Source: Fidelibacterota bacterium
GTDB taxonomy: Bacteria; Fidelibacterota; Marinisomatia; SCGC-AAA003-L08; TS1B11
Direction: 5' to 3'
NCBI GenBank assembly: GCA_030640955.1
Contig: DAOWIJ010000218.1
Location: forward strand, 1-22,624
DNA: 22,624 bases
In this document: one piece after another, positions 4,373 to 21,327 of the stretch
How positions within the stretch are numbered: the first letter of the stretch is position 1
Layout of the letters: every line of letters starts with the position of its first letter
Position numbers and translations under genes: made by a program
The notes under the pieces: generated by a model
Seen by the model: only the letters and a program-made list of their open reading frames with translations
Databases searched by the model: none
Told to the model about the DNA's origin: nothing

Positions 4373-5767
4373 ATGATTAGAGCAGTACTCTACTGGTTTT
4401 ATCAAAAACGCTGGTTACTGGTGGCCGTGATAGTAGGCACTGTGATGCTGTTCTTGCCGGTACCGGATGGCCTCACGTTGGCCGGTTACCGGACTCTGGC
4501 AATAGTCCTTGTAGTAATTATTCTGATTGTCTCTGAAGCGGTACCACTTCCGGCGACGGCCCTGTTGATCGCTGTGCTCCAGGTTATCCTCGGTATCGAT
4601 GAACCCACCCATGTAGCCCAAACGTACATGTCCGATTCCGTATTTTTTATCATGGGATCGCTCATGCTGGCGGTGGCGGTAGTGCGCCAGGGGCTGGACG
4701 CCCGCTTGACCCTGGGCATCCTATCGCTCACCGGCACCAGCGTTTACCGGATTATGTGGGGATTTTTTATCATTTCCCTGCTCCTGACTTCCTTCATGGG
4801 GGAGCATACCATCGTTGCCATGCTGTTACCGGTAGCATTGACGTTGATCAGAAGTACACCTGAAGACGATACCGAATTGCGCAATTTGACCCGCCTGTTA
4901 CTGTTTGCCCTGGCTTATGGCAGTGTACTGGGTTCCTTTGGCACACCATCGGGCGGTGCGCGTAATGCTATCATGATCGGCTATCTCTCCGATTTCGGCC
5001 TGGCCAAGGTGAGTTACCTGCGCTGGATCGTCTTTGCCTATCCCCTGATGTTGGTTCAGATACCCCTGGGCGGCTATATTCTCGGCCGTACATTCAAGCC
5101 GGAGGTAGCTTCGTTGTCGCAGGCGGTATTTCGCTTGAAACAGAAAGTTGCCGAAGCGGGTCCTTTGACACCGCAGCAGCGTCTGGCAGTAATTCTGTTT
5201 GTGCTGGTTTTTCTGGGCTGGGTATTTCTTAGCGATAAGATCGGTATCGGTATTGTTGCCCTGGCCGGTGTATTTCTTTATCTGGCAACAGGCCTGGTGG
5301 AGTGGCAGGATATCAACCAGCGTACCAACTGGGGGGTTGTGCTGTTGTATGCGGGCACCATTTCACTGGGGATTCAACTGAAAAATACGGGAGCTGCGGT
5401 CTGGATAGCGGACAACTTTGTGGGTCTGATGGGCTCTCTCATGACGCAATTTGAGGTAGTGCAATACGCGTTTGTAGTGATTATCACGACGATTGTGGTA
5501 AATATAATGAGTCCCAGCGCAACGGTCGCGGTCATGGGCCCCATGTTCATGAACCTTGGCGCCGAGCCGCTATTGCTTGGCATGGCTACGGCGGTGGCGT
5601 CGGCATTCGGTTATATGACGGCAGTGGGATCCGCTGCTGGTATGATCATCGCGTCAACCGGCTACTTGAAGCCAAAGGATTTCCTTCGGGTTGGCTGGCG
5701 CTTTGCGCTGATGTCGTTGATTTTTCTGATGGGCGCGCTGCTGTTTTACTGGCCGCGGCTGCTTTAG
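4373..5767 (+). CDS. anion permease of the SLC13/DASS (ArsB/NhaD superfamily) type
   Basis: 464-aa polytopic membrane protein. Hairpin-tip-like motifs are present (SEAVPLPATALL and GSFGTPSGGARNAIM), resembling the SLC13 signature S-x2-F-x2-P-x-G-x3-N. Family assignment is by motif resemblance only. Confidence 0.55.
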   Translation: MIRAVLYWFYQKRWLLVAVIVGTVMLFLPVPDGLTLAGYRTLAIVLVVIILIVSEAVPLPATALLIAVLQVILGIDEPTHVAQTYMSDSVFFIMGSLMLAVAVVRQGLDARLTLGILSLTGTSVYRIMWGFFIISLLLTSFMGEHTIVAMLLPVALTLIRSTPEDDTELRNLTRLLLFALAYGSVLGSFGTPSGGARNAIMIGYLSDFGLAKVSYLRWIVFAYPLMLVQIPLGGYILGRTFKPEVASLSQAVFRLKQKVAEAGPLTPQQRLAVILFVLVFLGWVFLSDKIGIGIVALAGVFLYLATGLVEWQDINQRTNWGVVLLYAGTISLGIQLKNTGAAVWIADNFVGLMGSLMTQFEVVQYAFVVIITTIVVNIMSPSATVAVMGPMFMNLGAEPLLLGMATAVASAFGYMTAVGSAAGMIIASTGYLKPKDFLRVGWRFALMSLIFLMGALLFYWPRLL

Positions 5768-5802
5768 GTATTCTGGAGATAATTGAAGCTTGGGAGATAT
5801 AA

Positions 5803-6678
5803 GTGAGATTCCTGGTTGCAATTAGCAGTCCCATTTATTCTGAGAGAACCCTGCAGATTGGCAGTTCCATCGCCGAAGCTTTCAAGGCGGAGCTGTCAGT
5901 GGTGTACGTCGGTGACCGGCCAAAAGCCCTGGCCACGGGGGGTGTGAATCTGGCTCGTGACGCCATGCTGAACTGGGACATCCATCATCCTGGAGTTGAC
6001 GTGCTCAGGTGGGCCTACAGTCGTCTCCAGGAGTATGAATTCATCGATGCTGACGCTGAGCAGTTTGATCCCAAGGACCTGGTGGAGGACGATGGCCGTC
6101 TACGGGTAGTGGTGCCCCATACTCACGGGGAAAAGATCAGGCTGATCCTCCGCGAAGGTGATCCGGTAGAGGAACTGAAACAGGAAACCAACATCCGCGA
6201 TTACCCGCTGACCATTGTGGGAGGTGGCTCGCGCAAGCGCCTCACAAGACAGCTGATTCAGTTTATCGACACCAGTCTGCTGTTCGTGAAAAACTTCGAT
6301 GTTGATAAGAAATACAAGCTACTGCTATGCGTGGATGATTCAGCCGCAACCAGACGGGCCGTGATGTTCTGTGGTCGGGTGGCGCAGGCTTTAGACACGG
6401 AGGTAATGCTGGTGACAGCCAGTAAGACCAAAGGTTTTGGTCCCGGCTACTCGAAGGCCGCTGCCTGGGCCAAGCGCTATATGGAGCGGTTGAAAATAGC
6501 GCACACGCAGGAGTTCGTAACCGGTGATCCGGCCACTACTTTTGTGCGTCTGGCAGGCTCGGACCATATCATTGTAATGGGCAAGTCCAAGATGCATCCC
6601 CTCAAGGCCTGGCTGACAGGCACAAAGCCGGGCGATACCGTACTGAAAGCTGATAGTCCCGCCATACTGGTAAAATAG
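5803..6678 (+). CDS. tandem universal stress protein (two UspA domains)
   Basis: GTG start. Two repeats each end in a USP-type ATP-binding region (PLTIVGGGSRKRLTRQLIQ...LLFV and HIIVMGKSKMHPLKAWLTGTKPGDTVLKADSPAILV). Lies directly downstream of the permease. Confidence 0.6.
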   Translation: MRFLVAISSPIYSERTLQIGSSIAEAFKAELSVVYVGDRPKALATGGVNLARDAMLNWDIHHPGVDVLRWAYSRLQEYEFIDADAEQFDPKDLVEDDGRLRVVVPHTHGEKIRLILREGDPVEELKQETNIRDYPLTIVGGGSRKRLTRQLIQFIDTSLLFVKNFDVDKKYKLLLCVDDSAATRRAVMFCGRVAQALDTEVMLVTASKTKGFGPGYSKAAAWAKRYMERLKIAHTQEFVTGDPATTFVRLAGSDHIIVMGKSKMHPLKAWLTGTKPGDTVLKADSPAILVK

Positions 6679-10177: not shown

Positions 10178-10312
10178 GATAACCCCCTGGTCCAGGATGA
10201 AAGCTACAAAGAAAGTCAAAACAGGACCAATTAGCCCCGTTAAATTTAGGCAATTCAAATCAGCCTAGGAAGGGGGAGTGGAGTTCCTGGTGTCGAGTTC
10301 CGGGTTCCTAGT

Positions 10313-10361
10313 ATCCAATATCCAACATCCAATATCCAATATCCAACATCGAGTATCAATC
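10313..10361. repeat. tandem heptanucleotide repeat, copy A: ATCCAAT ATCCAAC ATCCAAT ATCCAAT ATCCAAC ATCGAGT ATCAATC
   Basis: Seven consecutive in-phase 7-mers read directly from the sequence. Intergenic, between the lipoprotein gene 3' end and the CoA-transferase 5' region. Preceded by GAGTTCC direct repeats (10280-10310). Confidence 0.9.
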
Positions 10362-10374
10362 TCCCTGCCATCAC

Positions 10375-11556
10375 TCACTCCATCCGCCTGCCTATGATGA
10401 TGATATCCTTCTGAACTCCCTCGCTGAAATCTTCACCAATAATGACGACCATATCTTTTAACACCGCCACCGAACTGAAATAATAAATAGGATTATTGAA
10501 TTCATTATACTTCTTCCAGGTGGCACCATTGAAGTGCCATATAAGCCCACCTGAACCAACAATAAATATATTATCTCGCCCAGAGCCACGTACTTTGTTC
10601 GGAAATCCCTGCAGTGAAATCTTCAGCGGTTTTGCCTTCCCCTCGCCCCTGATATCCTGCCACCAGATGCCATTGCCTCCTACAACGATGAGGCTGTCCT
10701 CGGTGGCCTGCCACAGGCTGCTGATATGGCCCACATAGCTCTGTGTCGTATCGGAGATCAGATTTGCGTTTTCATCGTAGTACTGGTACCAGTGGGTCTG
10801 CCAGCCGATGCCATCGTTAAGCATGAGCACGCTGCCAGCACCGTCCGTCACCTTGTACCCGCAGGTCCACACATACGAGCCATCGGACGAACCCCACACA
10901 TCTCTCAGATAGACATCCGTGGCTGTGTTCATGGGAGACACATACGAGCCGTTGTATCTAGCGATACCACCGTTATACCCAACAAGATAAAGGATATTAT
11001 CTGAAGGCCCCCACATTTCCCAGACACCCCCAAATCCAAAGTACCTAGGGTGAAAAAAAGTGTAATCTCTCCCATCCCACCGTGTCAGGGATGCGGTATT
11101 TGCGTTGAACCAAATGGTGCTATCGGGCGGAAAGCCGTAAACGGATCTCATATCATCGCTATAAGAGGTATCGATGGTTCCCCCTGGATATAAAGGTGAA
11201 TGTGGGATCCGTCTTAATTCCCATTCATATCCGTTCCAGTGGGCGGTATTGTACTTGCGCCGCCAGGTGGTTGAAGAATCCGCGTGAATGGTATCCGTAT
11301 GCATGATCGCTCCCACTGCCCAGATATCGTCCTCAGAGGCGGCATATACGTCGAAAAGGCGCGAGGTCAACTCACCCAAATGGTATACTTCCCAGACAAA
11401 TTCGTGGCTGGTTGTGTCGGGGCAGCAGATGTCGGGATCATCGGTGCAGGGGTGGTAATACTCGGGGCATACCACCGGGTCGGGTTCCGTGGGGCAGGCG
11501 ACAAACAGACCCAGGGCAAGGAGGGCATACAAGGCAAGTCTTAACGGTGAAACCAT
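10375..11556 (-). CDS. hypothetical lipoprotein with Cys-rich N-terminal segment and beta-propeller-like repeats (Ycf48/BNR-like)
   Basis: Signal peptide plus lipobox (LALGLFVAC). The next 30 residues contain 6 Cys (CPTEPDPVVCPEYYHPCTDDPDICCPDTT). Then a recurring motif of the form hhhVG.NGG.I..W.. occurs about 6 times (LYLVGYNGGIARY, LIVVGGNGIWWQD, IFIVGSGGLIWHF and others). Parts of the gene are markedly AT-rich, for example about 33% GC in line 10441. Confidence 0.6.
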   Translation of the reverse strand: MVSPLRLALYALLALGLFVACPTEPDPVVCPEYYHPCTDDPDICCPDTTSHEFVWEVYHLGELTSRLFDVYAASEDDIWAVGAIMHTDTIHADSSTTWRRKYNTAHWNGYEWELRRIPHSPLYPGGTIDTSYSDDMRSVYGFPPDSTIWFNANTASLTRWDGRDYTFFHPRYFGFGGVWEMWGPSDNILYLVGYNGGIARYNGSYVSPMNTATDVYLRDVWGSSDGSYVWTCGYKVTDGAGSVLMLNDGIGWQTHWYQYYDENANLISDTTQSYVGHISSLWQATEDSLIVVGGNGIWWQDIRGEGKAKPLKISLQGFPNKVRGSGRDNIFIVGSGGLIWHFNGATWKKYNEFNNPIYYFSSVAVLKDMVVIIGEDFSEGVQKDIIIIGRRME

Positions 11557-11810
11557 GGCCCGAATGTACGGGAAAATTGAAAGAGTTGCGAGTATCGAGT
11601 TACCCTGTCATCGCGAGTCCCGACGCTGCGGTAGGGACGTGGCGATCTGCCTACATCCCGGATTGCCACGTCGCTGACGCTCCTCGCAACGACAGGTGTT
11701 GCTCAGTTTACGGCCTGCGAGTTTCGAGATTCGGGGATCAAGCCCCGCCGCCTGTCCCCGACGCTTCGGGTCGGCGGATGACGGGGTCCCCCCGCATTCT
11801 GCGGGGTCCC

Positions 11811-11845
11811 ATCCAATATCCAACATCCAATATCCAGTATCGAGT
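11811..11845. repeat. tandem heptanucleotide repeat, copy B: ATCCAAT ATCCAAC ATCCAAT ATCCAGT ATCGAGT
   Basis: Five in-phase 7-mers, same family and orientation as copy A. Lies immediately 3' of the OsmC gene (minus strand). Preceded by the perfect hairpin CCCCGCA-ttc-TGCGGGG (11790-11806). Confidence 0.9.
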
Positions 11846-14580: not shown

Positions 14581-16101
14581 ATGGGGCGGTCTGATTTAAT
14601 TAGCATTATCGTAGCAATCGGATTAACCGCCGGTTGCTCATCCAAACGCCCACCTGCGGTCACAGACGTCCGCTCGGAATTCGCGCCCTTGACGCCGCAA
14701 GCCCTCCTCGGTCACGTGGAATTCCTGGCCGACGATGCTCTGGAGGGGCGCAAAGCAGGCACAGCCGGCGCCCGGCGTGCCGCCACCTATATTAGAAATC
14801 AATTAGCGTATGCCGGGTTGGAACCGGCTGGAGAAAGCTATTACCAATCCTTCCCATTTTCCGCGGAGATTGAGCTGGGCCCGGGTAATCAGATTGCATG
14901 GCGGGGCGCCACCGCAGGTCAGTTGAGACCCGGTATTGACTTCAGACCGCTGGTTGCTTCACCGAACGCTGCCGTTTCCGGCCAGCTGGTTTTCGCCGGC
15001 TATGGTAAGCGTGATGACGAGATCATTTACGATGATTACGCGGACATTGATATGGGTGGGAAAATCGCATTGCTGCTGAGTCCCGGACCGCTGCTGGATG
15101 ACGAGCAATCGCAGACCAACCGGCGCAAACAGGTACTCACGGCCCGGCTGCAAGGCGCCGGCGCCGTCCTGCTGGTGCATTTAGGATCCAGTGGCTCGCC
15201 CTACGAGCTGCCGGTCCTGATACCCCGGAGCAGCCCGGCCCAGGCTGGGATACCAACGGCACTGCTGACCCAGGCCGCCGCCGACAGCCTCCTGGCTGGC
15301 GAACGCCTGACGGTGGAGGACCTGAGGCGTGAAATCGATACCTCACGGCTGCCCTTCAGCCATGAAATACGAGGTTTGACAGTGAGTCTCACTACCAATG
15401 TAACCGCCGTTGAGGATACCTCCCGCAATGTGGTGGCGGTGCTGCCTGGCAAGGGTAAACTGAAGGATCAATGGCTCATTGTGGGCGCCCACTACGATCA
15501 CGTCGGCATGGGGGGACCCGGTTCCGGTTCGGCGGTACCACTGGAGACGGCCATTCACAACGGAGCTGACGATAACGCCTCGGGGGTGGCCCTGCTGATC
15601 GATGTGGCCCGCTATCTGTCGGCCAACCAGCCTAAGGGCACCCGGCGCACGATGGTGTTCCAGGCCTTTGGCGCTGAAGAGCCGGGTCTGTGGGGGTCCA
15701 AATATGCCGCCGTACACCCGCCTTTACCTATTGAGACCGTTACCGCCATGGTGAACATGGACATGGTGGGCCGTCTGCGTCAAAACCGCCTGAGCATTCA
15801 CGGCGCCGGGTCATCCAGCGAGTGGCCCAGCCTGGTGAATACGGTTAACACGGACCAACTACTGCTCGATTTCACAGCCCAGCCCCAAGGGGCCAGCGAT
15901 CACCTGACCTACTTTCTGCGTGAAAAGCCGGTGCTGCACCTGACAACCGGCGGGCACGACCAGTATCATACACCCGATGATGACGTGGGCCTGATCAATT
16001 ACAAGGGTATGTCGCGTATCGGTGGGCTGGTGGCCCGCCTGGTGAGCGACCTGGCTACCCGGCCCGAACCGCTGCCGGTGAATCCGGTAGTGCCTGAATA
16101 G
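14581..16101 (+). CDS. M28-family zinc aminopeptidase lipoprotein (PA domain-containing)
   Basis: Lipobox LTAGC. LLGHVEFLADDALEGRKAGTAG, HYDHVGMG and NGADDNASGVALLID are hallmark M28 metal-binding blocks. Confidence 0.8.
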   Translation: MGRSDLISIIVAIGLTAGCSSKRPPAVTDVRSEFAPLTPQALLGHVEFLADDALEGRKAGTAGARRAATYIRNQLAYAGLEPAGESYYQSFPFSAEIELGPGNQIAWRGATAGQLRPGIDFRPLVASPNAAVSGQLVFAGYGKRDDEIIYDDYADIDMGGKIALLLSPGPLLDDEQSQTNRRKQVLTARLQGAGAVLLVHLGSSGSPYELPVLIPRSSPAQAGIPTALLTQAAADSLLAGERLTVEDLRREIDTSRLPFSHEIRGLTVSLTTNVTAVEDTSRNVVAVLPGKGKLKDQWLIVGAHYDHVGMGGPGSGSAVPLETAIHNGADDNASGVALLIDVARYLSANQPKGTRRTMVFQAFGAEEPGLWGSKYAAVHPPLPIETVTAMVNMDMVGRLRQNRLSIHGAGSSSEWPSLVNTVNTDQLLLDFTAQPQGASDHLTYFLREKPVLHLTTGGHDQYHTPDDDVGLINYKGMSRIGGLVARLVSDLATRPEPLPVNPVVPE

Positions 16102-16103
16102 CG

Positions 16104-16385
16104 CTAGAGCGGCTCCACCTTCACTTCCAGAAGCACCCAGTCACGGCCTTCTTCCAGAAGAGTGTTGACGGCCGACACGCGCTTCTCCACCACCTCCTTT
16201 TCCGCCGCCACGGTGACGAAGGCCAGCTCGGCCCGGTTCCACACGTCGTGCTGGCCTACTTCCGCCACCGACACGTTCATATGTTTGGTTACCCGGTCCT
16301 TGATGGAGCGCACCACCGCCCGCTTGTCCTTCAGGTTGTGGGCGTCGGGGATGTCTATGATGGCGCGCAGCAGGGCGATGTGCAT
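16104..16385 (-). CDS. DUF503 (YlxP-like) protein
   Basis: Assigned by resemblance to the DUF503 core MHIALLRAIIDIPDAHNLKDKRAVVRSIKDRV...VAEVGQHDVWNRAELAFV. I prefer the internal Met (93 aa) over the 107-aa ORF-track start, which would overlap the upstream gene. The stop lies 2 nt from the convergent M28 stop. Confidence 0.55.
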   Translation of the reverse strand: MHIALLRAIIDIPDAHNLKDKRAVVRSIKDRVTKHMNVSVAEVGQHDVWNRAELAFVTVAAEKEVVEKRVSAVNTLLEEGRDWVLLEVKVEPL

Positions 16386-16396
16386 GGGGGAAAGAA

Positions 16397-16984
16397 TCAT
16401 CTGATGCTTTGGAGTGATGATAAGCATCTCTGGAGACTATCACACACCCTTGAAGCATCCAAAGGGGACCAATGATTTTGGGCAAAATCAGCGATTCGTG
16501 AAGCGTATGCAGGTCCCTCTTTTGCAGTTCCGCCAGGGATTGGTACAATCTCCTCTCTCATATCATAACTGCCAAATCTGCTCACAATACGAATCAATTC
16601 AGCTTTGGGATCTTCTAGATTTTCAGGGTTCAAAGGGAATTTCGATTTTGAGATACGAAAATATTGCGCACACTTGGTGCGATCGCCCAGTATCCACGCT
16701 TCAACTTCTCTTACTACGATTCTAAAATGCATTTTAGGCGCAGGAGAAGGTAATAGTTTATCGTAAAGCTCTGGAGCACACACAGCATCATGATCCAAAT
16801 CCCGAAGTACAAACCAAGGGGCGAACCTTGCGGCGTTATTATAGCCTAGAAGATTCTTATCAAGCTGGTCTTTACCTCTTTTTCTATGAATTACCGCGAT
16901 ACCAAATCCAGCCATATCACAGATTCTTCGTACAACTGCTTCATCAGGATACCCCTCAACAGCAGCGGTGATGAAAGGACGCAT
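16397..16984 (-). CDS. small TOPRIM-like partner protein of the ATPase (resembles DUF4276 family)
   Basis: 195 aa. N-terminal ITAAVEGYPDEAVV (E-G...DE) and downstream LRDLDHD (DxD) form a TOPRIM-like acidic constellation. The ATG at 16982-16984 shares one nt with the ATPase TGA (TGATG). AT-rich. Family assignment is from memory of motif patterns and was not searched. Confidence 0.5.
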   Translation of the reverse strand: MRPFITAAVEGYPDEAVVRRICDMAGFGIAVIHRKRGKDQLDKNLLGYNNAARFAPWFVLRDLDHDAVCAPELYDKLLPSPAPKMHFRIVVREVEAWILGDRTKCAQYFRISKSKFPLNPENLEDPKAELIRIVSRFGSYDMREEIVPIPGGTAKEGPAYASRIADFAQNHWSPLDASRVCDSLQRCLSSLQSIR

Positions 16985-18126
16985 CAATCCCCAAAGAGAG
17001 CAATTTGAGAGGCATTGCTCGGTGATGTTCTCGGAAGCACTGCATCAGCGATAGAAAGGTCACCATTCTCAAGCAGAGCCACAATTTGATCATCGTCTTG
17101 GGCAGTGATAACTCTAGTCCCATCATAACTTGGCAGGAGCAATAGTACTTCATTTGCATCAATGCCCGAATCTTGTAATAAATCCCCCGAATGTGTGCTG
17201 ATAAATACTTGGCGGCCCCTTTTCCGACTTAATCTTGCAAACATTTGTGGCACGTGACGGATTAATTCGGGGTGAAGAGATAATTCTGGTTCTTCTAAAA
17301 GTAGCGGACCCGTCCCTTCAAGCACAGACCATAATAACCCTAGAAGTCTTAGGGTGCCGTCCGAAAATTGATCTTCTGTTTGCCACCCGGCATTTGGTCT
17401 CCAGTGCTCATAAAGACCTTGAATATGAGGGGTTCCTCGATTATCACGGACTAATTCTAAATCTTTAAGCTGGGGTACTGCCACTCGTAACGCGGTTCTT
17501 ATTTTATTTAGTCTGGATTCCAACGTGCTTTTAGGTGTCCTCGCGAGCCTCTCCAGAAAATCGCCACCATAAGGATCATTCACTTTGCCAGTCGAGCGAT
17601 CGGGTTCTCTTACTAATTGAGGGACAATATGGAGATACCTAACAGTGTTGAGAAATTCAGATATTTCCCGGAACTGCTTATTTGCATTTACCTGTTCTAA
17701 GTGCGTTTGCCTGAGACGTTCAGGGTCTGATTCATCCTCTTTGTCAGGTCTTGATAGAATAACTTCTCCAAATCTCTCAACAATTTCTTTTTCAACAACA
17801 GGTTTGCTTGCTCTATCCTGGACTATCTCAAGTCTATAGGTCCAATCTGGGTTTTCGCTATCATTCGCGCCAATATCTATTTCAAGAATAACTTGGGGGG
17901 CTCTCCGCGCAGCCAAACACCGAATCTTTGATACACCATCCCGTTTGTTTACTGCTTGCTGAAGTCCTCCCCCTACTGATGCAATGTCCTGTAAGAAGCG
18001 AAAAGCGTCCAACAAGTTTGATTTTCCGGCGGCATTCGGACCAACAATGAACGCTCTTTTCTGCAGTTTGATCTCAACCTTGCGGAAGTTTCGCCAATTA
18101 CTAAAATTGATTCGTGTAAACCTCAT
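16984..18126 (-). CDS. ABC-like AAA family ATPase (AAA_15/AAA_21 type, OLD/AbiLi/AriA/PtuA-like)
   Basis: Walker A (VGPNAAGKSNLLDAF), Walker B/D-loop (LLLEEPELSLHP) and H-loop (VFISTHSGDLL). I prefer the ATG at 18126 (MRFTRINFSNWRNF, the canonical N-terminus of this ATPase class) over the TTG at 18150 in the ORF track. AT-rich. Confidence 0.8.
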   Translation of the reverse strand: MRFTRINFSNWRNFRKVEIKLQKRAFIVGPNAAGKSNLLDAFRFLQDIASVGGGLQQAVNKRDGVSKIRCLAARRAPQVILEIDIGANDSENPDWTYRLEIVQDRASKPVVEKEIVERFGEVILSRPDKEDESDPERLRQTHLEQVNANKQFREISEFLNTVRYLHIVPQLVREPDRSTGKVNDPYGGDFLERLARTPKSTLESRLNKIRTALRVAVPQLKDLELVRDNRGTPHIQGLYEHWRPNAGWQTEDQFSDGTLRLLGLLWSVLEGTGPLLLEEPELSLHPELIRHVPQMFARLSRKRGRQVFISTHSGDLLQDSGIDANEVLLLLPSYDGTRVITAQDDDQIVALLENGDLSIADAVLPRTSPSNASQIALFGD

Positions 18127-18690
18127 CCTATAATTTCCCAGTATTGGCAATTCTAGAAGTGTGAATATTATTCATATTACAACAAATTACAGTCGATCTC
18201 ATTCTCATAATTTACACAATACATTTATTTCCCAAATACTTTAGATGAGATCGCTCCAAGGCGGAAATTCCTTCCCTCATCTTGTCCCCCAAGTATAATC
18301 CTTACCCGAGCCGATGACCACCAGCCCTAGACAAGCTCAGGATAGGCCCTTCGACTGGCTCAGGCCCGTATCAAATATCCTGCATCAAGACCCGCCTATG
18401 TCGGGATAGACATCGAGCCCTTCGGCAGGCTTGTCCCGCGGAATGCGGGGACGGGCTCAGCGTTCAAAGTTAATAGGGAAAGGTGAGATCAGGTTGGCAA
18501 TATTGCGTGGCGGGCAGGGGCGTTACCTCACCCCCGGACACTGCGTGTCGCCCCCTCTCCTGAAGGCGAGGGGTAAGACCGGAACCCAAGACCAAGGAAT
18601 AACTACATTAATGCAATCCATCCCCGTCAGGCCTGTACTGCGGAACGCGGGGGGATTGGCTGCCTGTACTATGATCCATCGTATAAATAA

Positions 18691-18704
18691 GCAATATATA
18701 TTGC
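18691..18704. promoter_or_regulatory. perfect 14-bp palindrome GCAATATATATTGC in the promoter region of the DUF4143-type ATPase gene
   Basis: Identical to its own reverse complement. It lies about 100 nt upstream of the ATG at 18803 and about 37 nt upstream of a TATAAT hexamer at 18741-18746. Confidence 0.5.
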
Positions 18705-18802
18705 GTTTAACCCATTTTATAGTTATATTAGACTCAGTATAATGATATAACATCGACATAAATATCTAGTAAGATCAATGTATTAAGTTTAATGGAAGTG
18801 AA

Positions 18803-20215
18803 ATGAGAGAGATTACAGCTGGCGAAATTGCGGCGCGTTATCGCTATGATAATCCGTGGTGGAGTTCTCATTCAAATTTACCTTATGCGGACCTGCCTGG
18901 GCGGGCATACCTGCCGCAATTCTACAAGTATATTTCAATGCCTGATCCCAACAGGGCTGTTGTGCTAATGGGTCCACGGAGGGTCGGTAAAACAGTACTG
19001 ATTCATCATGCCATATACGAACTGATCGATAATGGGGTTCCAGCCAATAATATACTCTATGTATCTGTTGACGCTCCTGTATTTACTGGCACGCCTCTGG
19101 AGCATCATGTTAAGAACTTCATTGATATCATACAGCAGCCAGGTAGTGAAAGACTTATTATTTTCCTTGATGAGGTGCAGTACCTGGCAAACTGGGAAGT
19201 GCATCTCAAGAGCCTGGTAGATACCTATCCCAATTATAAGTTTATAGTTTCGGGTTCTGCCGCGGCTGCTCTCAGATTCAAGAGTATCGAATCAGGTGCG
19301 GGCCGTTTTACAGACTTTATGCTGCCACCACTTACATTTGCAGAATACCTTGGTTTTATTGAAATAGAGAAAGACCTGATCAAGGCTGATTCTGAGAATC
19401 AACGCAACTATATAGCGCTGGATATCGGTGAACTAAATCGGCATTTTATCAACTACCTTAATTTCGGTGGATATCCTGAGGCGGTTTTTTCCGAGCAGAT
19501 AAAGGCAGACCCAGCAAGATTTATCAAGAGTGACATTATAGACAAAGTTCTCCTACGGGATTTGCCAGGTTTATACGGTATCAGAGATATCCAGGAACTC
19601 AACCGTTTATTCACCAATATTGCCTACAACACTGGTGAAGAGATCAGCCTCGAAGATTTATCCCAGAAGTCAGGCGTCCAAAAGAATACGATTGTGAAAT
19701 ACCTGGAATATCAGGAATCAGCATTTCTGATCAAAAGAATCAGGAAAGTGACACTGGCGGGGCAGAGATTTAAACGCGATCGCCATTTTAAGGTATACTT
19801 AACAAATCCGTCTATGAGAGCGGCCCTGTTTGGTCCAGTACAGATCGACTCAGAGGATATGGGAAAACTGGCAGAGACGGCGGTATTCGCGCAGTGGCTT
19901 CATGATAAAACGTATATTGAGAGCATCTATTATGGCCGTTGGAAGGAAGCCGAAGTTGATGTAATAGGTATTATCGAAGGCTCGCCTCGCACTATCTGGG
20001 CTGTTGAGATAAAGTGGAGTGATAAATCCTACTCCAATCCAAGTAGGATCAAAGGGATAATCGACTACTCCAAGAAACATTCGCTTAGTAGAAAACCAGT
20101 GGTAACAACACGTACCATTAGAGGAGAACTCATCGTGTCTGGAGTTCCAATAGAATTTTGTCCAACCAGCCTGCATTGCTATACGATTGGTAAAAATCTG
20201 ATCCAGAACAAGTGA
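18803..20215 (+). CDS. AAA_14 / DUF4143-type ATP-binding protein
   Basis: 470 aa. Walker A (LMGPRRVGKTVL) and Walker B (LIIFLDEVQYL). Length and N-terminal organisation are typical of the widespread AAA_14+DUF4143 ATP-binding protein family. AT-rich, about 43% GC in a sampled line. Confidence 0.75.
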   Translation: MREITAGEIAARYRYDNPWWSSHSNLPYADLPGRAYLPQFYKYISMPDPNRAVVLMGPRRVGKTVLIHHAIYELIDNGVPANNILYVSVDAPVFTGTPLEHHVKNFIDIIQQPGSERLIIFLDEVQYLANWEVHLKSLVDTYPNYKFIVSGSAAAALRFKSIESGAGRFTDFMLPPLTFAEYLGFIEIEKDLIKADSENQRNYIALDIGELNRHFINYLNFGGYPEAVFSEQIKADPARFIKSDIIDKVLLRDLPGLYGIRDIQELNRLFTNIAYNTGEEISLEDLSQKSGVQKNTIVKYLEYQESAFLIKRIRKVTLAGQRFKRDRHFKVYLTNPSMRAALFGPVQIDSEDMGKLAETAVFAQWLHDKTYIESIYYGRWKEAEVDVIGIIEGSPRTIWAVEIKWSDKSYSNPSRIKGIIDYSKKHSLSRKPVVTTRTIRGELIVSGVPIEFCPTSLHCYTIGKNLIQNK

Positions 20216-20308
20216 GTAACCTTTTTCTTTGTCGCCGGATCCTAAATGAAATTCGATTGTCTAAAACCCACCTTAAAGCAAAATTATTGATACATTTACT
20301 ATATAAGT

Positions 20309-20337
20309 AAAAAACCGCCCCCATCTCTGAGGGCGGT
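20309..20337 (-). terminator. rho-independent terminator (minus strand)
   Basis: ACCGCCC-ccatctctga-GGGCGGT gives a 7-bp GC stem. On the minus strand it is followed by a 6-nt U run (A6 at 20309-20314 on plus). It lies downstream of the SPFH gene and repeat copy C. Confidence 0.7.
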
Positions 20338-20338
20338 C

Positions 20339-20421
20339 ATCCAATATCTAATATCCAATATCCTGCTTCATCCCCACCAATGGCGGGCTAAACATCTAGT
20401 ATCGAGTATCGAGCATCCAGA
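20339..20421. repeat. tandem heptanucleotide repeat, copy C (split): ATCCAAT ATCTAAT ATCCAAT ATCCTGC ... ATCTAGT ATCGAGT ATCGAGC ATCCAGA
   Basis: Same 7-mer family as copies A and B, interrupted by a 27-nt spacer (ttcatccccaccaatggcgggctaaac). Lies between the convergent SPFH gene and DUF4143-type gene ends. Confidence 0.85.
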
Positions 20422-20424
20422 CCG

Positions 20425-21327
20425 CTAGTTCACGCCTCCCAGGATAATCGGCAGGCCGTCTTTGCCTGAGCCGATCACCACTACCTTGGCATTGTTGCTG
20501 CCGGCCAGGGCGTTGGTGGCCTCGATCCCCTTCCAACGCAGGAAGTTATCCGATATCCCTTCGGCCACCGTCTTATTGAAATCCCGGATGCCCTCGGCTT
20601 CGATCCGTTTACGGGCCGCCTCCTTCTGCTCCTTCACCAGGACGAACTCCATGCGCTGGCTCTCCTGCTCGGCGCGCAATTTCTCCTCGATGGCGGCTGC
20701 CAGGTCCTGAGGCAGGATCACGTCGCGAAGCGGAGTGGACTCTATCGCAATTCCCCGTTCGGAAACAGCTTCGGCTAGTTTGGCCGAGATGGCAGCGGCC
20801 ACCTCATCGCGCTTGGAGGCGTACACCGCTTTGGCTTCAAATTTGGCGGTCACATCCCGGACCACCGAGCGGAAATTGGGCAGCAATACCTTGCGGATGA
20901 GATCTTCCTCCAGGCCGACAGTCCGTACTATCTCAGGGGCGACCGACGGTTCCAAATGGTAGATCACGCTGATCTCCAGGCCCACGGTAAGGTTCTCCTT
21001 GGAGGGAGCCCGCATCTCCTCCCGGCGCTCCTGGGTCTTGATGTTCATTTTAATGATATCAGCGAAGGGATTACGCACATTTACCCCTTCACGCAACACC
21101 CGGCTGTCAACCTTGCCGAAGACCTTGATCACGCCCACGGTGCCGGCGTCAATGATGGTGATCAACTGGAAGGCTGCCATCAGCAGGGCGATGAACGCTA
21201 TTCCCTGGAGCAGACCCGGACCCAAGCCCATCTGCTTCAGATTACTTGACAGCACCGACGATCGCTTGACATAAACGGACAGGAAGAGCACGACTACCGC
21301 GATGACGGCAAAAAGTAAAAAACGCAT
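20425..21327 (-). CDS. SPFH/band-7 (prohibitin/HflC-like) membrane protein
   Basis: 300 aa. N-terminal TM helix, then an SPFH core (GTVGVIKVFGKVD...NVRNPF) and a C-terminal coiled-coil rich in EAEQ. AAGGAG SD 8 nt upstream. Confidence 0.8.
   Translation of the reverse strand: MRFLLFAVIAVVVLFLSVYVKRSSVLSSNLKQMGLGPGLLQGIAFIALLMAAFQLITIIDAGTVGVIKVFGKVDSRVLREGVNVRNPFADIIKMNIKTQERREEMRAPSKENLTVGLEISVIYHLEPSVAPEIVRTVGLEEDLIRKVLLPNFRSVVRDVTAKFEAKAVYASKRDEVAAAISAKLAEAVSERGIAIESTPLRDVILPQDLAAAIEEKLRAEQESQRMEFVLVKEQKEAARKRIEAEGIRDFNKTVAEGISDNFLRWKGIEATNALAGSNNAKVVVIGSGKDGLPIILGGVN

Follow-up and report, generated by a model that had tools for sequence, protein, structure and literature searches.

Candidate defence cassettes in a variable slot between the SPFH and DUF503 genes of a Marinimicrobia contig

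Marinimicrobia (SAR406/Fidelibacterota) are an abundant, uncultivated phylum, and to our knowledge their phage-defence biology has barely been described. Here we present the analysis of 22,624 nucleotides (nt) of a Fidelibacterota metagenome-assembled genome (MAG; contig DAOWIJ010000218.1, assembly GCA_030640955.1), hereafter called the window, and in particular of an AT-rich block of about 4 kb that lies between a DUF503 gene and a gene of the SPFH/Band 7 (prohibitin) family. The block carries the two genes of a candidate defence operon, HEC-01, and the gene of a single-protein candidate, PDC-S01. A first-pass annotation, made from the sequence alone, had described the three genes correctly as an ABC-like ATPase, a small TOPRIM-like partner and a DUF4143-type ATPase, and had read the whole as one horizontally acquired defence or mobile island. 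Related or near-identical loci used for comparison are designated L081 to L096.

The HEC-01 operon occupies the left part of the block, on the minus strand. HEC-01A (16984..18126) encodes a 380-aa ABC-type ATPase (AAA_21/AAA_15); a 388-aa open reading frame (ORF) starting with TTG was rejected as the ATPase gene, the true start being the ATG at 18126. In the PADLOC search the protein matched the HEC-01A model (PDLC04180) at 1.2e-158 and 526 bits (ORF residues 9-384 against profile positions 1-379 of 382), the next-best model being AriA (5.7e-37), with AbiLi, Old and GajA also far lower. It contains the Pfam domain AAA_21 (5.6e-39) and harbors Walker A (GPNAAGKS), Walker B (LLLEEP), signature (SDG) and H-loop (HS) motifs, and its sequence matches in the PDB are the GajA and OLD nucleases. 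HEC-01B (16397..16984) encodes a 195-aa TOPRIM (DUF4276-related) protein, a predicted nuclease effector, which matched the HEC-01B model (PDLC04194) at 5.8e-57 and 191 bits. Residues E10, D62 (of a DLD motif), E95 and D101 are invariant and include the metal-binding Glu and DxD of the TOPRIM fold. A profile sequence search of the PDB gave no match for HEC-01B, and its TOPRIM relation is visible by fold comparison alone, the AlphaFold2 model (pLDDT 96.5) having OLD and AriB as its top structural matches. The two genes are adjacent and co-oriented, the stop of A overlapping the start of B (TGATG, 16984-16986), and the same pairing was found in L087, L094 and L096.

HEC-01, for Hma-embedded candidate 01, has been described as an ABC ATPase with a TOPRIM protein bearing an OLD metal site, the family being defined through its embedding in known defence loci (Payne et al., 2024; 10.1101/2024.01.29.577857). 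DUF4276 has been assigned to the Toprim superfamily (PMC12065111) and is listed among AAA15/21-ATPase defence systems in the paper on PARIS (PMC11464382). On the match to the A model, the model match and predicted fold of B, and the operon layout, the window pair can be assigned to HEC-01: here too, an ABC ATPase gene and that of a small TOPRIM protein make up one operon, with near end-to-end model matches. The window copy differs in standing alone in a slot between core genes, not embedded in an Hma (helicase-methylase-ATPase) system. PARIS, Gabija and OLD share the same working logic, although the nuclease family or the architecture differs. In PARIS the ABC ATPase AriA is paired with AriB, a DUF4435 TOPRIM protein of about 300 aa and about 35 kDa, whereas the window partner has 195 aa and is DUF4276-like, and PARIS was consequently rejected. 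Gabija was rejected as well, since the block holds neither a UvrD-like GajB nor any helicase gene and the GajA model scored far below HEC-01A, and so was a class 1-2 OLD system, as ATPase and TOPRIM are encoded by separate genes and the Old model again scored far lower.

The second candidate is a 470-aa protein encoded on the plus strand (18803..20215), in which an AAA_14 ATPase domain (Pfam, 2.4e-30) is followed by DUF4143 (5e-23), a PD-(D/E)xK-like domain. It matched the PADLOC model PDC-S01 (PDLC04787) over its full length (4.9e-58, 195 bits); the first-pass annotation had proposed a search of this kind, and it gave strong matches for all three proteins. Walker A (G57-T64), Walker B (D123-E124) and the D386...E402-x-K404 residues are invariant in 11 sequences. 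With a single gene, an ATPase plus PD-(D/E)xK-type architecture, a model match and intact motifs, the protein can be placed in PDC-S01 as judged by sequence, and it is probably an ATP-dependent nuclease; it differs from its family in being just 44-53% identical to the nearest metagenomic relatives found.

Both flanking genes are native and lie on the minus strand. On the left, DUF503 (16104..16385; Pfam DUF503, 4e-26) encodes 93 aa, its start being taken from the gene call in L082, and the protein is 67-71% identical across all relatives, empty-site genomes included. HEC-01B stops at 16397 and the DUF503 ATG lies at 16385, which confirms the left edge at 11 nt from the DUF503 start; the junction (AGATGATTCTTTCCCCCATG, minus strand, 16386..16396) is where the foreign DNA starts on the left. 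L094 is arranged in the same way, with 12 nt at this place, and in neither locus is there a terminator between the two genes. On the right, the SPFH gene (20425..21327; Pfam Band_7, 1.6e-27; 67-84% identity to the relatives) is followed by a spacer (20339..20424, minus strand) composed of a heptamer array, a GC hairpin and a second heptamer array (Tandem Repeats Finder arrays 20339-20363 and 20394-20417), and then by an intrinsic terminator with an 11-bp stem and a T-run (20338-20313, minus strand). The first-pass annotation had taken the terminator and the heptamer element as marks of the right edge of the island; both exist, but they belong to the native flank of SPFH. The same CAGAGATGG-loop terminator stands after SPFH in L089 and L090, homology to the post-SPFH DNA of the relatives begins at the terminator, and the spacer is 84.9% identical to the DNA downstream of SPFH in L086. 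Since terminator and spacer are shared with the relatives in this way, both belong to the native flank. The limit of the foreign DNA is therefore placed at about 20312, inside the AT-rich tail that follows the DUF4143 gene (20216..20312) or where this tail stops.

The composition of the block is strongly deviant, as the first-pass annotation had claimed from spot counts that proved exact (0.267 for 18181-18240, 0.433 for 19381-19440 and 0.683 for 15181-15240), and the uniformity that would have spoken against an insertion is refuted. In 400-nt windows the GC content is 0.60-0.625 over 15000-16400, falls to 0.42-0.46 over 16400-20400 and returns to about 0.60 beyond, while 60-nt lines average 0.443 within 16386-20312 (n = 65) and 0.555 outside (n = 311; Mann-Whitney p = 1.4e-19). 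At third codon positions (GC3) the values are 0.34 for HEC-01B, 0.36 for HEC-01A and 0.44 for the DUF4143 gene, against 0.60-0.87 for 14 flanking genes (0.85 for DUF503, 0.74 for SPFH), and the tetranucleotide distance to the rest of the window has z = 6.7-8.3 for each 1-kb window in the block. The AT-rich block is foreign DNA. It is not uniform: 16386-18250 (GC 0.433) and 18681-20312 (GC 0.415) are separated by a stretch of host-like composition (18251-18680, GC 0.572).

A search with the SPFH protein placed the contig in a Candidatus Marinimicrobia MAG and led to relatives with 60-82% identity (a scan of species-representative genomes with the M28 peptidase was rejected as a route to relatives, as it gave nothing closer than 41%, without synteny). 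The empty site, a search for which had also been proposed, is present in L091 (GCA_022560655.1) and L092 (complete chromosome CP070638.1), where SPFH is followed by DUF503 at 13-14 nt, the junctions being compact and free of any scar or relic. These are more distant Marinimicrobia, in which SPFH is about 70% identical and the genes that follow, for an M28 peptidase and GDPD in convergent orientation, are those of the window. Being co-oriented and only 13-14 nt apart in the empty-site genomes, SPFH and DUF503 probably formed an operon ancestrally. Where the relatives are closer (SPFH 81-84%), the slot is always filled with different DNA, whose cargo lies 10-12 GC points below the flanks. L086 and L093 carry a Schlafen-AlbA_2/HATPase_c_4 protein and a ParA-like ATPase (2,956 nt), L087 and L088 a divergent HEC-01 pair (2,318 nt), and L090 a dCTP-deaminase defence gene (PADLOC dCTPase, 1.6e-151) with four unannotated genes (4,517 nt); together with L094/L095 and the window, five different contents are found in the occupied slot, among them dCTP deaminase, HEC-01, PDC-S01 and the Schlafen-like ATPase. 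Conserved synteny of the three window genes with their flanks, which would have contradicted an acquisition, was not observed across the relatives, where other cargo fills the slot.

Two of these cargos deserve mention in their own right. In L086 (7871-10059, also in L093) the 396-aa Schlafen-AlbA_2 and HATPase_c_4 protein shows a weak PADLOC similarity to Argonaute-associated (Aga/pAgo) proteins (7.8e-16), and a 333-aa ParA/CbiA-like ATPase gene overlaps the end of its gene, a pairing that matches no known system. In L090 (3619-6022) the four genes beside the dCTP-deaminase gene encode 63, 268, 245 and 146 aa, three of them forming a reverse-strand operon, and none has a Pfam or PADLOC match; by guilt of location they are candidates for an undescribed defence system.

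The HEC-01 cassette and its flanks have incongruent histories, as judged from sequence identities and the list of homologues rather than from a formal phylogeny. L094 and L095 have the gene order of the empty-site L092 plus a HEC-01 pair between SPFH and DUF503; relative to L092, L094 has 2,083 nt inserted in place of 11 nt, with a GC content of 0.437 against 0.579 for the remaining locus. Between L094 and the window, HEC-01A is 88% and HEC-01B 75% identical, SPFH 68% and the M28 peptidase only 45%. L087, the closest locus by its flanks (SPFH 83%; M28 not in the locus), shows the opposite, with 56% for HEC-01A and 47% for HEC-01B, and the window protein has closer relatives in the HEC-01A homologues of Cystobacter, Rokubacteria and Alphaproteobacteria (63-64%) than in the same-site copy of L087. 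At the DNA level the window (18326 to 16173) aligns with L094 (5751 to 7913) at 81.4% over 2.17 kb, while the SPFH genes are 71.7% identical. In L096, with HEC-01A 77% identical, the pair again stands directly after SPFH. On this reading the HEC-01 cassette passes from one Marinimicrobia lineage to another and takes along parts of the genes on either side. Additionally, the match lists of SPFH and HEC-01 contain contigs of coinciding length, 25,656 nt (SPFH P0036, HEC-01B P0242) and 4,083 nt (SPFH P0034, HEC-01A P0128, HEC-01B P0245), which suggests at least two further lineages with HEC-01 and SPFH on one contig.

What had been taken for a single inserted island is a composite of two cassettes, split by the 430-nt native-type spacer (18251..18680). 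The spacer contains a degraded relic of the SPFH 3' end (18277..18326, minus strand), which forms the SPFH-proximal end of the HEC-01 cassette and encodes LVVIGSGKD...stop; blastx aligned it with VVVIGSGKD of SPFH, and 25 nt of it match the SPFH 3' end in L087 at 92%. The homology between the window and L094 begins exactly at this relic, at 18326. Farther along, 18369-18420 is a second, diverged copy of the post-SPFH hairpin and heptamers (80.8% to L086 7534-7483, E = 2.7e-7), with a collinear extension in which 18298-18420 matches L086 7608-7483 (E = 2e-9), and 18527-18573 matches an intergenic site in L096. The pieces were resolved, by these alignments, as an old relic plus spacer common to L086 and L094. 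A simple target-site duplication of the SPFH tail was rejected, since collinearity with the native copy is lacking, and so was a structured RNA in the GC-rich spacer, which had no Rfam match at gathering or relaxed thresholds and folded no better than shuffled sequences (z = 0.27). Two degenerate copies of a CCTGAGCTTGTCGAAGGGC motif lie beside the relic (18323-18364) and nowhere else in the window; in L087, perfect copies of it stand on either side of the HEC-01 cassette, one 20 nt past the SPFH stop and the other 17 nt ahead of the DUF503 start. A 20-nt motif CCTGAGCTTGTCGAAGGGCT, inside a 35-nt repeat of L087 (1059-1093 and 3322-3356, 83% identical), likewise has perfect copies at these two places and two degenerate ones at 18323-18364 of the window. 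When translated it gives PEPVEG and LSLS-type peptides, as would a dispersed GC-rich repeat, and similar spurious ORFs are presumably present in other phyla.

Relic gene ends are not confined to the window. In L094, a 61-nt stretch (5746-5806) that lies 131 nt past the SPFH stop has 86.9% identity with the 3' end of SPFH in the empty-site L092. L090 repeats the last 52 nt of SPFH and the 54-nt terminator (83% and 91%) 2.2 kb downstream, so that they bracket the deaminase cassette; L086 has both the SPFH 3' end (74%) and the DUF503 5' end (89%) duplicated; and L096 has a decayed DUF503 5' end after HEC-01B. To account for the relics across these loci, the SPFH end must have been duplicated independently at least twice. 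The HEC-01 cassette (16386 to about 18326) and the DUF4143 cassette (about 18681-20312) were acquired separately. The latter probably came second, given that HEC-01 stands alone in L094 and that the DUF4143 gene is found on the SPFH side of the relic.

Upstream of HEC-01A, an AT-rich leader (18127..18250) is collinear with the sequence upstream of HEC-01A in L094 and belongs to the first cassette; promoter-like sites lie on the minus strand at 18196-18167 and 18320-18292. The intergenic stretch before the DUF4143 gene measures 652 nt (18151-18802). The second cassette starts with the AT-rich promoter region of the DUF4143 gene (18681..18802, plus strand), with a promoter-like TTTATA-16-TATAAT at 18716-18743.

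Taken together, we consider the SPFH-DUF503 junction a gene-insertion hotspot in this Marinimicrobia lineage, holding two acquired cassettes in the window, with a probability of roughly 80%. From an ancestral state with SPFH and DUF503 as a tight pair, the HEC-01 cassette would have come to abut DUF503, carried by homologous recombination through the conserved flanks or by Campbell-type integration at the 3' terminus of SPFH, and the PDC-S01 gene would have been inserted later and nearer SPFH, an old native-type spacer with its SPFH relic remaining between them. HEC-01A, translationally coupled to the TOPRIM nuclease HEC-01B, would sense an infection cue and control or release its partner, which would cut nucleic acid and abort the infection; this ATPase-controlled action is proposed by analogy with OLD, Gabija and PARIS. 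DUF503 may now be transcribed by read-through from the HEC-01 operon, its expression depending on the inserted promoter. The foreign composition, empty site, variable cargo, discordance of cassette and flanks, relic duplications, protein families and fold, and intact catalytic motifs are observed directly; the anti-phage function, the sensor/effector mechanism, the order of insertions and the recombination route are what we infer from these comparisons.

Several points weigh against such a reading. No donor of the DUF4143 cassette was identified, a metagenome scan giving at most 53% identity and no relative adjoining SPFH. No recombinase, transposase or tRNA was detected in any version of the slot examined, the unannotated cargo genes of the relatives included, and no clean target-site duplication explains the insertions. 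Since every cargo at the slot is AT-shifted, even HEC-01 variants sharing 56% identity, low GC need not signal a recent arrival and may be a standing property of the mobile gene pool. As for function, a HEC-01 representative did not protect Escherichia coli against the phages tried in the one test published (10.1101/2024.01.29.577857), and PDC-S01, a very common fusion of an ATPase to a PD-(D/E)xK domain, is a candidate awaiting validation (PMC12988326). The horizontal acquisition claimed by the first-pass annotation is thus upheld by deviant composition, empty site, variable cargo and the discordance of cassette and flank, while its term defence holds at the level of strong PADLOC matches to candidate systems.

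The cassettes could also be foreign and yet not anti-phage, serving as selfish addiction or toxin-like modules, or as ATPase-nuclease pairs for DNA repair or maintenance, at a permissive site. The negative HEC-01 assay and the guilt-by-embedding status of PDC-S01 would fit this, as would the presence in the window of another variable insertion that is not defence-like, a gene for a 393-aa lipoprotein-like protein. However, the slot also hosts a validated type of system, the dCTP deaminase, HEC-01B has the nuclease fold of OLD, AriB and GajA with conserved metal-binding residues, and the HEC-01 family was itself defined by embedding in known defence loci, so that we regard a function other than defence as unlikely.

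As a candidate defence hotspot, the locus is clear but ordinary, an instance of a known phenomenon that does not overturn current understanding. Defence-island hotspots with variable cargo in a fixed slot between core genes are known from E. coli, Pseudomonas and Vibrio, and the window slot resembles them in its conserved flanks, empty and filled alleles, diverse and mostly defence-type cargo and deviant composition; it differs in having no mobility gene in or beside it and in successive insertions that leave relic ends of the flanking genes. Our literature search found no report of such hotspots in Marinimicrobia. The value of the locus lies in a cleanly resolved case for this phylum, with an empty site, five alternative cargos and a cassette moving between lineages, and in natural, compact versions of two very common candidate systems that await validation. 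With the slot as bait, marine metagenomes could also be searched for new defence genes, such as the unannotated ones of L090.

A minor mechanistic puzzle is how stacking can proceed without an integrase, with relic gene ends and with period-7 arrays at cargo borders. An integrase-mediated island was rejected, since there is no tRNA and no recombinase domain in the cargo of the window or its relatives, and the repeats are relic gene ends or REP-like (repetitive extragenic palindromic) motifs that do not bracket the whole block. A phage origin was also rejected, neither ATPase having a close relative in viral contigs and the PHROG matches being generic ATPase families of unknown function, as was a plasmid origin, the only matches being partial ones of 65% to a DUF4143-type gene carried by two Acinetobacter plasmids. 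A dedicated capture mechanism acting in trans might serve the slot instead of plain homologous recombination, an idea we hold as doubtful. New cassettes would then come in at the final 30-60 nt of SPFH, duplicating the gene end and sometimes the terminator as well, and would displace older cassettes and relics in the direction of DUF503, in the manner of tandem integration at tRNA 3' ends or integron stacking. The period-7 arrays with hairpins, at slot cargo and at the 393-aa gene, would be recombination or protein-binding sites, and the recombinase would be encoded elsewhere in the genome.

Arrays of this kind stand at both borders of variable cargo in several loci, namely L086 (7515-7548 and 10352-10389), L087 (1088-1116 and 3311-3329) and L096 (7599-7634 and 9916-9939), and the window spacer retains a relic copy (18369-18387). 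Their units vary (TATCCAA, ATCGAGT, TGGATAT, TAACTTG, GCTCGAT and others), often beside a GC-rich hairpin. None occurs in the empty-site loci L091 and L092 (41.8 kb together), and Rfam gave no match for them. Possible identities are lineage-specific REP-like elements, iterons that bind a protein, and sites of recombination.

That one integrative mobile element brought all three genes in a single insertion is improbable. The low-GC block is contiguous between two core genes and all near-identical assemblies carry the three genes together, as a single element would predict. Against this, the native-GC middle is homologous to the post-SPFH spacer of relatives and contains the SPFH relic, at which the homology of the window with L094 stops, and L094/L095 and L096 have the HEC-01 cassette without the DUF4143 gene. 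Furthermore, no integrase, transposase or terminal repeats surround the whole block, direct or inverted repeats bracketing it being not above chance.

It is more improbable still that the genes are ancestral, with a low GC content arising from local mutational or selective bias and the empty genomes representing losses. At least four lineages (window, L087, L094 and L096) do have a HEC-01 pair at this place, and the AT-richness is kept even between copies 56% identical; nevertheless, cassette and flank identities run in opposite ways, HEC-01A has closer homologues in unrelated phyla than in the sister genome, unrelated cargo occupies the slot of other relatives, and the empty sites are compact and unscarred. 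An artefact of assembly or binning, joining low-GC DNA of another organism to a Marinimicrobia contig, can be set aside, although the source is a MAG and the contig of one MAG breaks inside the island (L082/L085): the ENA assembly L081 spans both junctions at 99.8-99.9%, the left junction is also spanned by an NCBI MAG contig and a Logan contig and the right one by a 98.7% strain variant (L081-L085 set), and the same SPFH-HEC-01-DUF503 junctions exist in other samples and lineages (L094, L095).

The window as a whole contains no tRNA and no Rfam family, and outside the block further heptamer arrays lie at 10312-10364 and 11810-11841. These bracket a second, milder compositional anomaly (10375-11556, minus strand; GC 0.51, GC3 0.59, tetranucleotide z up to 3.3), the gene of the 393-aa orphan with a lipoprotein-type signal peptide and Trp/Gly-rich repeats, which had no match in Pfam, PADLOC, NCBIfam or PHROG. 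The gene lies between those for OsmC and acetyl-CoA hydrolase, and as these two are adjacent in L092 and L094, it is another variable insertion, apparently not related to defence.

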